A stretch of DNA of 27,094 bases from an uncultured Nitrososphaerota archaeon (GTDB lineage: Archaea > Asgardarchaeota > Njordarchaeia > Njordarchaeales > Njordarchaeaceae): positions 1 to 27,094 of the forward strand of contig CAZFGR010000019.1 of the NCBI GenBank assembly GCA_964518475.1, read 5' to 3'. The notes under the pieces were generated by a model. The model had not been told where the DNA came from, searched no databases, and saw only the letters and a list, made by a program, of their open reading frames with translations. The translations under genes and the position numbers were made by a program. Below are positions 2,185 to 18,124 of the stretch, in pieces (position 1 is the first letter of the stretch; each line of letters begins with the position of its first letter).

Positions 2185-2270
2185 TCAGAGTTAGTGAACA
2201 ACATTCGCGGTCATATGAAACCGCCACTCATCATAGAACAATGCTCAGCGACTAAGCCCGTAATCATCCC
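2185..2270 (-). ncRNA. Box C/D guide sRNA locus (one RNA or two tandem/overlapping RNAs)
   Basis: Minus strand reads GGGATGA(2270-2264)-ttacgggcttagtcg-CTGA(2248-2245)-10 nt-ATGATGA(2234-2228)-gtggcggtttcat-ATGA(2214-2211)-...-tgttcactaact-CTGA(2188-2185). Guide GGCTTAGTCG is complementary to CGACUAAGCC in the 5' domain of many archaeal 16S rRNAs. A TATA-like TTTTTAAA lies upstream at about 2310-2303. Confidence 0.7.
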
Positions 2271-2575
2271 TCCATGATGAAAAAATGAGTACTAACGTTT
2301 CTTTAAAAAAATTATGAAGTATAGAAATAGTGAAAGATCTATTCCGTCTTTCTTATTAGGAAAATGATTGCAAATATTATTGCTAGGCCTAAAAACAAGC
2401 TATCTAACATTTCTTTTTCTACCCCTCCGGTGAGAACAGGACTATTTAACCCATATTGATATCTCAATTATAGAACTTATTAAATAGATTTTTTTAATCT
2501 TTCTATTTTTGAGTGATAGCATGAAAACTAGTTAAAGAGGAATTAATTGTTTTTGCCGTAATTTTTGGCTGCGAC

Positions 2576-2827
2576 TTATGATTCTCTCTGAAGGCAACGT
2601 GATATAATAATGGAGGTCCTTGTTTCTATTACGAAGGGGAGGTCCCTTAATTTCCTAACTAACTCGAACAGTTCATGAGCATCTGTTGTCTCCGCATATA
2701 GAATTACATCTATTTCTCCAGTGACGACAGAGCAAGATTTTATCTCCTTGAATTTTTGCATGTTTTTTTCAAGCTCTTCTATTGGGATAGGTTTTAATTT
2801 AAGGAGAATATACGCAGCAATAGGCAA
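2576..2827 (-). CDS. Stand-alone Lrp/AsnC ligand-binding (RAM) domain protein
   Basis: 83 aa with AYILLK...VVTGEIDVILYAE...LRDLPFVIETRTSI pattern and no HTH. TTG start is preceded by SD AGGTGA. Confidence 0.85.
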   Translation of the reverse strand: MPIAAYILLKLKPIPIEELEKNMQKFKEIKSCSVVTGEIDVILYAETTDAHELFELVRKLRDLPFVIETRTSIIISRCLQRES

Positions 2828-2926
2828 GATAATTCACCTTTGGAGATAATTAAGTGCCGAATCTAGTAAACACTTTTCAGTTATTTAAAGCTTGAGCAAT
2901 ATACCTACTTTTACTAGACAGAAAAT

Positions 2927-4351
2927 CTATAGTGATGAAGCAATTTCGCGTATTCTTGCTAACCACTTATCTATATCTGCCAATAGTTTATTCTTATGAT
3001 CTTCTGAAAATGCGTTAGTACTTTTAAGATAGTCTTCTAATTCATTTATCGTAGCATCTATCTCCAATATCAGGGATTCGAATGCTTTTTCAGAGGATAA
3101 TAGACTGGATGCTTCCCTAAGATCACTCAGTATCATGTAAGGATTCATGTCAAGTTCGATCATATCTTTTATGGTGATTAATCTTTTCTGTACCTCCATA
3201 ACCAATAACAGTATCTTTCGGAATTTATCTCTCATTCTATTCCTTTCTCTAAGAAACTCAATCGTAGACTCGACTATAGCTTTCGCAGTATGTAATACGT
3301 AATTCCCTATATCATCGAAACTTGAGTCGGATCTGCCTAGAACTACTTTATTGTCTCTAATGGATACGTATAACTCAACGTATCTATCTGTACCCCTACC
3401 GGGGAAGAAAAGAGTAGCCTTCTTAAGAGAGTCGTTTCTTTCCTTTAACAATGCACCAGCTAGCATTAGTTGCTCAATTATTTTCCCGAACAGCTCTGTT
3501 TTATCTAGATTTTCGAAGTGAATCGTAGCTTCTTGATAACTGGGTTGAACTTTTATTTTCTCTTCTTTGGCTATCATTGGTGCTCTAGGTGGCTGTTTTA
3601 CAAGCATATGTAAAAGTCTGGTATTTTCGCCGATATTTTCTATCATGTCATAAGGCATTAAGAAAGCGATTGAACTGAGAACATAAGTTCTGGTACGGGG
3701 ATCAAAAGCTATTACTGGTGACCCATCTTTTGCAAAAGCTATAGATAGGAACTCTCCAATTGTTTTCAGAGGATAGATAGTTATTTGGGAGGGAATAATG
3801 CACTTAATACCATATGAGGGCACGGTTATAGTTACGAAATTTTTCTCGCTTCTCAAAGGTTTTGATACGTCATAGGCTATGGAGAGATTTTGTCTCCTCA
3901 ACAAGTTATTTAACTCTAGTATCTCTTGTACGCTTGCAGTAACTTTAGGAGCTATTATTCTCGGTACGGTTATTTCGTGGTGAATATAGGTAGGTTCTAG
4001 GATAAGTATCACATCAGCTTCTTCAATTTTTTCTGAAATCTCGTAACCACCTAACCTGACACCCGCTATAAGCCAATCGCTTACAGACCCTACTATGTAA
4101 GCTTTCCCTAGTTCGGGAGCACTTTCTTTAAATTCAATCATTTTGATATTTTCTGGTACTTCGTCCGCGATGATATCGATCTTAATAACTCCTGCTTGTT
4201 TTTTCACGGATAAAATAGGGTAATGTTTCCCATCAATTACCGCGAAATCTCCCGGCCTCGCCTCTACCGTTTTTTCTGTCTCTACTAAGATGCTTACTAT
4301 TCGATTCGCACTTTGCCATACCCTTATGATTTTGAGGAACAAAATAATCAC
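2927..4351 (-). CDS. Multidomain hypothetical protein: N-terminal beta-barrel, degenerate GIFT/IFT52/DUF4350-like (GATase-fold) domain, alpha/beta domain, C-terminal helical bundle
   Basis: 474 aa, overlapping the upstream gene's stop (GTGA). Segments EEADVILILEP, ELNNLLRRQNLSIAYD, PVIAF...YVLSSIAFL...ENTRLLHMLV resemble the GIFT/GldG pattern. The last ~110 aa are amphipathic helices. Domain calls are tentative. Confidence 0.45.
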   Translation of the reverse strand: MIILFLKIIRVWQSANRIVSILVETEKTVEARPGDFAVIDGKHYPILSVKKQAGVIKIDIIADEVPENIKMIEFKESAPELGKAYIVGSVSDWLIAGVRLGGYEISEKIEEADVILILEPTYIHHEITVPRIIAPKVTASVQEILELNNLLRRQNLSIAYDVSKPLRSEKNFVTITVPSYGIKCIIPSQITIYPLKTIGEFLSIAFAKDGSPVIAFDPRTRTYVLSSIAFLMPYDMIENIGENTRLLHMLVKQPPRAPMIAKEEKIKVQPSYQEATIHFENLDKTELFGKIIEQLMLAGALLKERNDSLKKATLFFPGRGTDRYVELYVSIRDNKVVLGRSDSSFDDIGNYVLHTAKAIVESTIEFLRERNRMRDKFRKILLLVMEVQKRLITIKDMIELDMNPYMILSDLREASSLLSSEKAFESLILEIDATINELEDYLKSTNAFSEDHKNKLLADIDKWLARIREIASSL

Positions 4352-16329: not shown

Positions 16330-17682
16330 CTACTTCAAGAATTTTTCTTCCCACTCTTTTAAATGTTGTATGCTCTCCTCAACTGATGCGAATCTTTCTC
16401 TCGCAGCCTCAACATCCTCCTTTGTAACCTTGTTCCTTCCGTTTATTTTTGCTCTCTCAGCTGCTGGTGCCATCAATTGTACTGCATATCTTAGAGAAAT
16501 TTCGGTACCATACCTGACCAAGAGTTCCATCGCCTCGTCATCCAGTTCAATACCTTCCTCCCTCGCCCTAATCTTGATAATTTCACGAACCTCTTCAGCA
16601 CTATACGGGTACGTGGGGATTATCAACAACCTATCTAGCAGATCAAGCGGCATACCATGAGGAGAAACAATATCCGTACCCCGAATCTTAGTCAAACCCC
16701 TATTCGACGCCATGATCACAATTGGTGCTAGTTCTGATTCGAGAGCACGGTTAAGAAAACTAAAAGCCTCAATATCCAACATATGTATTTCATCTATGAA
16801 GAGGACTCCGGGGATTATTTCTGCTTTTCCTTCTTCTACTCTTTCTTTGACCCATTGGTCGACTTGTGCTCTTGTCTCTGGGTCTATTTCTTTTCTTTCT
16901 TCGCCTCCGCCGAATAGTAGGGAGAATATTCCTCCGCCACTTCTTTGTTTGTGGAAGAGTTCATCAAGTTCATCTAATGTTGTTGTCCATACGAATTCTC
17001 TGTCCTTTTCGACGGGACCTGATGGAACTGGTACTCTTGGTACTCGCCCTATGTCGTATCCTATTTCTTTAGCGGCTTCCTCGCTTATTCCGAGTATGCT
17101 GACTCTGCCGGTTTCTTTATCGATCATAATAACCATGCCTTTCTGGACTCCTCTGTTAATCATTTCCTCCGCCACATCTGGGCCGATGGTATATGTTACT
17201 CTCTCGTCTTTTGTTCTTAGAGTAAGTTTTGCTTTTTGAACAACTCTTTGGTAGGGGTTAAAGGGGTGTGATACGAAGTGTGGTTCAAATTCTGCAACTT
17301 CGCCCTCGAGCACTCTTCTTATCTCCCTTAATCTCACGCCAATGGCTTTCCTCAAGGCTCTCATCAAAACTTCTGTCTTCTTCACTTCCGCACTGTAAAT
17401 CTCTGAACCACTTAGCTGAACGAATGGGACATCACTTCCCAACTCTCTGGCAATCCCTATAGCTATAGCAGTCTTACCCGTTCCAGGAGGTCCAGCTAGG
17501 AGAACGGCACGTCCCGCCATTTTTCCCTCTTTGATAAGTCTAACTACGAGACCGGCTGCTTCACGAGCCTTTATTTGACCAACAAGTCCATCTCCAATAA
17601 ACTTAGCGTTCCCCTTTTCGTCAAGTCCTAGCCCCTTAACGTGACTATGAGCACCGATCCTAATTAGGGTTCTAGTACTCAT
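16330..17682 (-). CDS. tip49: TIP49/RuvB-like AAA+ ATPase (Rvb1/Rvb2 homolog)
   Basis: AHSHVKGLGL, Walker A GPPGTGKT, SEIYSAEVKKTE, Walker B FIDEIHML, SPHGMPLDLLDR, SLRYA. ATG 17682 follows SD GAGGTGA. Confidence 0.95.
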   Translation of the reverse strand: MSTRTLIRIGAHSHVKGLGLDEKGNAKFIGDGLVGQIKAREAAGLVVRLIKEGKMAGRAVLLAGPPGTGKTAIAIGIARELGSDVPFVQLSGSEIYSAEVKKTEVLMRALRKAIGVRLREIRRVLEGEVAEFEPHFVSHPFNPYQRVVQKAKLTLRTKDERVTYTIGPDVAEEMINRGVQKGMVIMIDKETGRVSILGISEEAAKEIGYDIGRVPRVPVPSGPVEKDREFVWTTTLDELDELFHKQRSGGGIFSLLFGGGEERKEIDPETRAQVDQWVKERVEEGKAEIIPGVLFIDEIHMLDIEAFSFLNRALESELAPIVIMASNRGLTKIRGTDIVSPHGMPLDLLDRLLIIPTYPYSAEEVREIIKIRAREEGIELDDEAMELLVRYGTEISLRYAVQLMAPAAERAKINGRNKVTKEDVEAARERFASVEESIQHLKEWEEKFLK

Positions 17683-17940
17683 AAGGTGATTCACCTCTTA
17701 CAACATCATGTCTCTGAATAACAATACCGTGAGAAGGAACGATAGGGAAGAGCTAAGTTAGTCCTAGAGAAAATATTCTTATCATATATTCGAGTCACTA
17801 AATCTATAAATATTTCTTATTGATAGAACTTCCAAATAGCATCGGTCGCATTCTCAGAAATATTTTTGGTATATGCACTAGGGAGAAGTATTCAATAGTT
17901 GCTTATCCAAAAACTATGCCATGACTAAAAGTTTCATAAA

Positions 17941-17992
17941 ATGATGAAGCTAACTAATCGGAATAACGCATGAAGACGAAGAGCCGAGCTGA
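17941..17992 (+). ncRNA. Box C/D guide sRNA, D guide antisense to 23S rRNA domain V
   Basis: C ATGATGA 17941-47, 11-nt guide agctaactaat, D' CGGA 17959-62, C' ATGAAGA 17970-76, 12-nt guide cgaagagccgag, D CTGA 17989-92. GAAGAGCCGA is complementary to the conserved GAUG-UCGGCUCUUC of archaeal/eukaryotic LSU rRNA. Confidence 0.85.
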
Positions 17993-18073
17993 TGAATGAA
18001 ACGCTGAGAGGCTAGAAGAGGATTATTTTTAAAATGTGATTACGAGAGAGAGTAATTTTGTTAGATTAGTGAT

Positions 18074-18124
18074 ATGATGATAATTGGGCCGTCTGATAAT
18101 AGGGATGAAGGCTGGGACACCTGA
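18074..18124 (+). ncRNA. Box C/D guide sRNA
   Basis: C ATGATGA 18074-80, 12-nt guide taattgggccgt, D' CTGA 18093-96, C' GGGATGA 18102-08, 12-nt guide aggctgggacac, D CTGA 18121-24. Flanks can pair (TGA/TCA; AATTTTG 18054-60 with CAAAATT 18126-32). Confidence 0.9.

Follow-up and report, generated by a model that had tools for sequence, protein, structure and literature searches.

The 27,094-nucleotide (nt) stretch of archaeal DNA analyzed here, referred to in the following as the window, very probably carries five genes for archaeal box C/D small RNAs (sRNAs), the prokaryotic counterparts of eukaryotic small nucleolar RNAs (snoRNAs). The window is contig C19 of a metagenome-assembled genome (MAG) of an Asgard archaeon, G000 (2.33 Mb, 121 contigs, 38% GC, estimated completeness 91%). 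One of the loci, c1, lies on the minus strand, and the other four, c2–c5, lie on the plus strand (Table 1). An earlier note, made from the letters of the window alone, had proposed guide RNAs at these five places, and the motif statistics, the complementarity of the guides to ribosomal RNA (rRNA), the conservation of orthologs and the presence of fibrillarin, Nop5 and L7Ae all agree with that proposal. Direct reading of the sequence bore out the description of c2–c5 as units of 50–52 nt with the full C–D′–C′–D layout and guides of 11–12 nt, all placed in gaps between long open reading frames (ORFs). The C and D boxes that would form the terminal kink-turn (k-turn) are exact in c2–c5. Across all five loci, the internal D′ and C′ boxes are separated by spacers of 4–10 nt, and the guides are 11–13 nt long.

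A genome-wide scan showed that such layouts are far more frequent in G000 than in shuffled sequence. A strict regular expression with all four boxes perfect gave 19 matches in the genome. When candidates were scored over 22 box positions, 48 non-overlapping candidates reached a score of at least 20, against a mean of 0.2 per genome in five block-shuffled controls; the similar rate in shuffled DNA that the earlier note had named as a refutation was not seen. Low-scoring layouts were equally common in the genome and the shuffles (114 against 117 at score 16, and 64 against 62 at score 17). Since the real and shuffled counts were about equal at scores 16–18, the excess is confined to near-perfect layouts. 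The window loci scored 22/22 (c2 and c3), 20/22 (c4) and 21/22 (c5). The four plus-strand genes fall within 4.2 kb, a cluster with a Poisson probability of ≈2 × 10−6, or ≈10−3 after correction for the number of windows. The guides have a GC content of 59%, compared to 38% for the genome, mirroring the GC-rich rRNA.

The internal boxes of the 48 genes covary. D′ reads CGGA or CCGA in 14 of them (≈30%), and all 14 have AUGAAGA, GUGAAGA or AUGAGGA as their C′ box, none having AUGAUGA. Position 5 of C′ is U in 28 of the 34 genes with U at position 2 of D′. A residue other than U at D′ position 2 was thus accompanied by a residue other than U at C′ position 5 in 14/14 cases, versus 6/34 for the remaining genes (Fisher p = 8 × 10−8). 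The pairing of CGGA/CCGA with AUGAAGA/AUGAGGA replaces the U–U opposition of the kink-loop (k-loop), and c4 belongs to this subclass. The scanner threshold would have admitted the missing class, and the covariation of the opposed k-loop positions is therefore genuine.

We then used a sequence-only covariance model, R1, made from 29 of the C/D genes of the genome. R1 recovered 49 loci in the genome at E < 0.01. Run on the window with filters off, it found exactly c2–c5 (E = 3.5 × 10−8 to 1 × 10−4), scoring 28.4 bits for both c2 and c3, 17.4 bits (E = 1 × 10−4) for c4 and 27.9 bits for c5. The next-best match in the window was c1, aligned weakly at 2266–2225 (6.1 bits, E = 0.39). An Rfam scan of the whole window at E ≤ 1 returned seven matches, all on c2–c5 and all to archaeal C/D families (sR20, snoPyro_CD, sR2, sR5, sR23 and sR3). 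The best were sR20 (RF01140) on c5, with 30.7 bits against a gathering score of 44, and snoPyro_CD (RF00095) on c2, with 30.4 against 45; the best scores of sR2 (RF01139) and sR5 (RF01304) were also sub-threshold, at 26.4 against 42 and 26.2 against 40 bits. The guide sequences are specific to the lineage, and hence no family reaches its gathering score (26–31 bits versus 40–45). The loci are members of the C/D class, but of no curated Rfam family.

The same genes were recognized in related genomes. Four genomes of the same genus (G001, G002, G004 and G005) and three from the sister family of the same order (G007, G010 and G013) were compared. The orthologs in G001, G002 and G004 keep the boxes and the paired guide cores, with variation in spacer length (3–20 nt) and at unpaired guide positions. 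The c2 orthologs in G002 (ATGATGA-GATTGGCTACCC-CCGA-GCG-ATGAGGA-ACGTTTGGGGGC-CTGA) and G004 (TTGATGA-TTTTGGCTACAT-CTGA-(10 nt)-ATGATGA-GCGTTTGGGGGGA-CTGA) are syntenic and retain both guides, with a changed spacer. Both guides of c3 are likewise kept in G002, where the ortholog is syntenic and has a 20 nt spacer, and in G004; the core of the c3 D′ guide, GGTCAGGAA, is conserved in three species (the window and orthologs in L045 and L033). For c4, precisely the 10 positions pairing with 23S rRNA, GAAGAGCCGA, are retained by the orthologs in G004 and G001, which differ at positions 1 and 12 and in the whole D′ guide. The c5 orthologs in the same two genomes keep the cores CTGGGC(C/T)G and GGCTGGGA.

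Since the rRNA of G000 itself is unassembled, the targets rest on G005, from the same genus (23S complete, 16S without the first ≈230 nt), and G010, from the same order (full rRNAs). For each of the 96 guides in the 48 genes, we matched the 10 nt at positions 2–11 upstream of the D or D′ box. Perfect 10/10 pairing was found for 20/96 guides, compared to 2.0 for shuffled guides, and a score of 9.5 was found for 19/96, compared to 5.6. Among the eight guides of c2–c5, four reached at least 9.5, with ≈0.6 expected. Complementarity of the kind that the earlier note called for is thus present to congeneric and same-order rRNA.

With positions given in E. coli numbering after rRNA alignment, the c2 D guide forms 11 contiguous pairs (one G–U) with congeneric 23S at ≈1897, and the c2 D′ guide forms 9 base pairs (bp) at ≈1932. 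The c3 D guide makes 9 Watson–Crick pairs and one G–U pair at 23S ≈1907, in helix 69 (H69). The c4 D guide pairs 10/10 by Watson–Crick with 23S GUCGGCUCUUCC, at ≈G2509. The core of the c5 D guide, GGCUGGGA, which the G004 and G001 orthologs share, pairs without interruption at 9 positions with the congeneric 23S sequence GUCCCAGCC, at ≈1994. Pairing of at least 9–10 bp with a Watson–Crick pair at N+5, the nucleotide opposite the fifth guide position, was therefore found for the D guides of c2–c5 and the D′ guide of c2. The c5 D′ guide matched 16S weakly (8 Watson–Crick and 2 G–U pairs), and no site complementary to the c3 D′ guide was found in any rRNA or transfer RNA (tRNA) examined, making it a conserved orphan guide. 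The positions ≈1897, 1907 and 1932 lie inside H68–71, which together with H90–93 is a hotspot of archaeal 2′-O-methylation (Dennis et al. 2015, PMC4644070); ≈G2509 lies in the peptidyl-transferase region of domain V, beside H90–93. The two c2 guides bracket H69, ≈35 nt apart. The genome-wide guide table also includes guides to 16S helix 34 and to the anti-Shine–Dalgarno sequence. Guide matches to the 31 tRNAs predicted by ARAGORN were not enriched over shuffles, and an 11-mer search of the genome itself, allowing up to one mismatch, gave only chance-level matches. Judged from this complementarity, the window guides would direct 2′-O-methylation of the predicted 23S sites.

All three core proteins that the earlier note had named as a check are encoded in the genome. 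Fibrillarin (PF01269, 322 bits) and Nop5 (PF01798, 229 bits) are neighboring genes on contig C1, and there are two L7Ae-family genes (PF01248, 95 and 68 bits). By analogy with the established archaeal C/D small ribonucleoprotein (sRNP), the ≈50–62 nt transcript would fold by pairing of C with D and C′ with D′, giving a k-turn and a k-loop. L7Ae would bind both, and a Nop5 dimer and two fibrillarins would assemble there. Each D or D′ box is preceded by a 12-nt guide, which would pair with the nascent rRNA, and fibrillarin would then 2′-O-methylate the N+5 nucleotide.

The minus-strand locus needed a correction. The earlier note had placed it at 2185–2270; a C/D sRNA is indeed present, whereas the 3′ boundary was wrong and the D box misassigned. 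The CTGA at 2188–2185, previously taken as the D box, is not kept in the G002 ortholog. The conserved unit is 2270–2209, and c1 therefore has two guides rather than three. The unit common to c1 and its orthologs in G002 and G001 reads GGG-ATGATTA-(C/A)GGGCTTAGTCG-CTGA-spacer-ATGATGA-13 nt-ATGA-CC, with different boxes in G001. All three species have an identical 11-nt D′ guide, GGGCTTAGTCG, and the spacer shows no such constraint. A canonical C/D k-turn has G6 of the C box paired with C1 of the D box, and U5 of the C box opposite U2 of the D box. In the window and in G002, U at position 6 of C is accompanied by A at position 1 of D, replacing the G–C pair, and in G001 the C box is AUGAGGA and the D box CCGA (G5 with C2). 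These two different compensatory states among the orthologs support the box assignment of c1 and a real k-turn.

Against congeneric 23S, the c1 guides gave imperfect candidate sites: ≈9–10 bp near E. coli 2720–2732, and 10 Watson–Crick plus 2 G–U pairs near 2187–2204. A candidate 16S 5′-domain site for the D′ guide, CGACUAAGCC, was not confirmed, the sequence being absent from the Asgard 16S examined. Two metagenome-derived 16S sequences, 91–92% identical to the congener, read GGGACUAAGACAUGC and form 7 contiguous pairs with this guide, and the site is neither confirmed nor excluded by them. Just upstream of c1 is a 23-codon ORF (2339–2410, minus strand) encoding a hydrophobic peptide, MLDSLFLGLAIIFAIIFLIRKTE, which may be a small membrane protein; its frame and sequence are conserved in G002.

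Several points weigh against the identification of the loci as guide RNA genes. Neither the small- nor the large-subunit rRNA of G000 was found in the MAG, and matches of 9–10 bp arise by chance in ≈8% of shuffled guides. No convincing target (at least 9.5/10) was found in the rRNAs matched for the D′ guides of c3, c4 and c5, nor was one found in congeneric or same-order rRNA for either c1 guide. All Rfam matches are below the gathering score (22–31 bits versus 40–45). Over the 60 nt that precede each of the 48 genes, no positional TATA box or B recognition element signal was seen, and we infer the transcription of the loci, their assembly into RNPs and the methylation from analysis of the DNA. 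One alternative would be that the motifs encode nothing, and that short AT-rich words such as TGATGA and CTGA merely happen to fall together in a genome with 38% GC. The boxes are indeed short, and layouts with low scores occur as often in the shuffles, but chance would not account for the 48 real candidates against 0.2 shuffled ones at a score of at least 20, for the cross-species conservation of guides and boxes amid diverging flanks, or for the enrichment of rRNA complementarity among the guides. The shuffled genomes and the conserved orthologs refute a chance origin, which we regard as next to impossible.

It is also possible that the RNAs form genuine C/D sRNPs, but that c1 and the D′ guides of c3–c5 are orphans, chaperones of rRNA folding, or directed to something other than rRNA, rather than productive guides. 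The lack of a target of at least 9.5/10 for precisely these guides would fit, as would the c4 D′ guide being wholly different among three orthologs. A chaperone role has been proposed for dual guides with targets that lie far apart along the rRNA but near each other once it is folded (PMC4644070), and the spacing of the c2 sites around H69 may fit such a role. However, the conservation of the c3 D′ guide in three species implies a real target, unseen in incomplete rRNA data, and the rRNA set matched included neither the rRNA of G000 nor the 16S 5′ domain of the genus. On balance, we consider this explanation somewhat unlikely. For c1 alone, another role can be envisaged, in which it is not a free guide RNA but part of the 5′ leader of a 157-amino-acid (aa) ORF (1702–2175, minus strand), where it would act as a k-turn bound by L7Ae and control translation of the ORF. 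Like the L7Ae-binding k-turn leaders of archaeal mRNAs, c1 carries GA-type k-turn motifs and precedes an ORF on the same strand, ending 34 nt upstream of its ATG; the orthologs in G002 and G001 have the same placement, the C and D boxes of c1 are non-consensus, and a clear rRNA target was not found. Unlike those leaders, c1 has the complete C–guide–D′–spacer–C′–guide–D geometry, with guides of 12 and 13 nt, and its invariant D′ guide would be unneeded by a simple k-turn operator; neither the spacer nor the stretch between c1 and the ATG is conserved. A leader element is thus improbable, and we continue to read c1, like c2–c5, as a gene for a guide RNA.

The Asgard-type host proposed in the earlier note was borne out by the actin encoded in the window (PF00022, E = 1.8 × 10−119). 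Its closest relatives, 78–87% identical, are in MAGs of Candidatus Njordarchaeota/Njordarchaeum guaymaensis, and these relatives, together with ZPR1, PAC2 and a Ras-like GTPase in the window, show that the attribution is right. A protein encoded on a contig assigned to Pseudomonas sp. UMAB-08 (L029, NZ_LT607417.1) shares 46% identity with the window actin over 372 residues; the Pseudomonas assembly is probably contaminated with eukaryotic DNA. Reverse gyrase, a marker of hyperthermophily, is encoded at full length in the genome, and the congeneric rRNA has 62–64% GC, against 38% for the genome. Most Njordarchaeales are predicted hyperthermophiles (Eme et al. 2023, PMC10307638), and C/D sRNA genes have been counted at 52–128 per genome in hyperthermophiles, compared to 7 in a mesophile (PMC4644070). 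The ≈50 guide genes, the reverse gyrase and the GC-rich congeneric rRNA therefore support the earlier suggestion of a thermophile with a large guide repertoire, and a set of this size in a reverse-gyrase-bearing Njordarchaeales genome is as expected for a hyperthermophile.

To survey other Asgard archaea, R1 was run with strict filters on 121 genomes of at least 80% completeness at E ≤ 0.01, with 47 candidates scored per genome. The model was trained on G000, but its information comes solely from the universal boxes and the 12-nt spacing, so that it should apply to C/D genes in general. It gave 44, 35, 22 and 8 matches in its own genus and 20, 16 and 16 in the sister family. Elsewhere, one genome had 7, one other family had 3–4, and all others had 0–1, with no match in 100 genomes. 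In five complete or nearly complete genomes of other families, default filters with 150 scored candidates yielded 0–1 weak matches. Fibrillarin was present in 119 of the 121 genomes. The machinery is thus near-universal, and of the genomes sampled, only those of Njordarchaeales have canonical dual-guide genes in abundance. This distribution fits the known rise of guide number with growth temperature, and suggests that mesophilic Asgards, including the lineages placed nearest eukaryotes, carry few guide genes recognizable by R1.

No catalogue of Asgard C/D sRNAs was found in the literature searched, in line with the earlier remark that these RNAs are poorly catalogued in the group. Such a catalogue with predicted rRNA targets would be a useful annotation resource and would allow guide–target comparison with eukaryotic 2′-O-methylation maps. 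No group is known to be closer to eukaryotes than the Asgard archaea. Njordarchaeales might be the only sampled Asgard lineage to have kept a large canonical repertoire (8–44 matches versus 0–7 elsewhere). If some of the guide–target pairs (H69, peptidyl-transferase region) were orthologous to eukaryotic snoRNA–target pairs, the set would offer the closest look, among prokaryotes, at the snoRNAs that the archaeal ancestor of eukaryotes possessed, and the linkage of three guide genes to TIP49/RuvBL at the genus level might hint at an R2TP-like assembly link. We consider this extended interpretation speculative and quite unlikely.

Table 1. Positions of the C/D loci, their guides and other genes discussed in the text (window coordinates unless a contig is given).
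Feature	Position	Strand	Description
c1	2209–2270	−	GGG/CC flanks; C = AUGAUUA 2267–2261, D′ = CUGA 2248–2245, C′ = AUGAUGA 2234–2228, D = AUGA 2214–2211; 10-nt D′/C′ spacer
c1 D′ guide	2260–2249	−	CGGGCUUAGUCG
c1 D guide	2227–2215	−	GUGGCGGUUUCAU (13 nt)
c2	13955–14006	+	GTGATGA, 12-nt guide, CTGA, 6-nt spacer, ATGATGA, 12-nt guide, CTGA
c2 D′ guide	13962–13973	+	
c2 D guide	13991–14002	+	
c3	16272–16321	+	ATGATGA, 12-nt guide, CTGA, 4-nt spacer, ATGATGA, 12-nt guide, CTGA
c3 D′ guide	16279–16290	+	
c3 D guide	16306–16317	+	
c4	17941–17992	+	ATGATGA, 11-nt guide, CGGA, 7-nt spacer, ATGAAGA, 12-nt guide, CTGA
c4 D guide	17977–17988	+	
c5	18074–18124	+	ATGATGA, 12-nt guide, CTGA, 5-nt spacer, GGGATGA, 12-nt guide, CTGA
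c5 D′ guide	18081–18092	+	
c5 D guide	18109–18120	+	
GAP1-N2 domain protein	4348–5358	−	
TIP49/RuvBL AAA+ ATPase	16330–17694	−	PF06068, E = 8 × 10−139
Actin	18216–19439	+	407 aa, PF00022
ZPR1 zinc-finger protein	21379–22290	+	
PAC2 proteasome-assembly chaperone	22740–23519	−	
Ras/Roc-like small GTPase	24677–25855	−	
Reverse gyrase	G000:C1:387002–390976	+	Full-length, 1397-aa frame, TIGR01054 above cut-off; hyperthermophily marker

Within the window, c2 is flanked by a radical-SAM (rSAM) gene and Alba. Locus c3 lies between a 124-aa ORF and the TIP49 stop codon, just beyond that stop on the opposite strand. Both c4 and c5 are inside the 521-nt divergent spacer between TIP49 and actin, and 92 nt separate the end of c5 from the start codon of actin. 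TIP49 thus has C/D genes on both sides: c3 past its stop codon, and c4 and c5 in the spacer that it shares with actin. In G002, the gene order on contig C213 (AcnX, orf188, rSAM, c2, Alba, rSAM, orf124, c3, TIP49) matches that of the window, with c2 and c3 at exactly the same intergenic sites. The c5, c3 and c4 orthologs of G004 are found within 650 nt, adjoining TIP49 and orf124, and those of c4 and c5 in G001 are upstream of TIP49, so that C/D genes adjoin TIP49 in G000, G001, G002 and G004. The TIP49 genes of G005 and of the sister-family genomes G007, G010 and G013 have no C/D gene within 1.5 kb. The adjacency was therefore treated as genus-level synteny, and a functional link between the C/D genes and TIP49 was set aside. 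Similarly, no C/D gene was found in the 6 kb upstream of actin at the loci of four other Njordarchaeota MAGs (L017–L020), and the c4–c5–actin arrangement is therefore specific to this genome. The window has no tRNA genes. Elsewhere in the genome, a C/D gene on the plus strand (G000:C1:347659–347709) follows a tRNA gene, with ≈20 nt between the tRNA 3′ end and its own start, a spacing that suggests co-transcription of the two.

The loci are ordinary additions to a well-known class of RNA, and their biology is textbook. They most resemble the dual-guide C/D sRNAs of hyperthermophiles, such as Sulfolobus sR1–sR29 and Pyrococcus snoPyro_CD (RF00095; PMC4644070). Common to both are the 50–52 nt length, the RUGAUGA and CUGA boxes, the internal D′/C′ pair, 12-nt guides and a spacer of 3–10 nt, as well as targets in H68–71 and the peptidyl-transferase region of domain V of 23S, dozens of genes per genome, and L7Ae, Nop5 and fibrillarin. 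They differ in that the host is an Asgard archaeon and not a cren- or euryarchaeon, and in that ≈30% of the present set has the D′ = CGGA/C′ = AUGAAGA pair. With the eukaryotic box C/D snoRNAs (SNORDs), the window RNAs share the boxes, the N+5 rule and homologous proteins, which in eukaryotes are fibrillarin, Nop56/58 and Snu13. The neighboring TIP49 of the window is likewise a homolog of eukaryotic RuvBL1/2, the R2TP subunits that assemble box C/D snoRNPs. In contrast to SNORDs, the RNAs described here are far shorter, are symmetric dual guides with little or no terminal stem, and are encoded by free-standing, intergenic genes rather than in introns.

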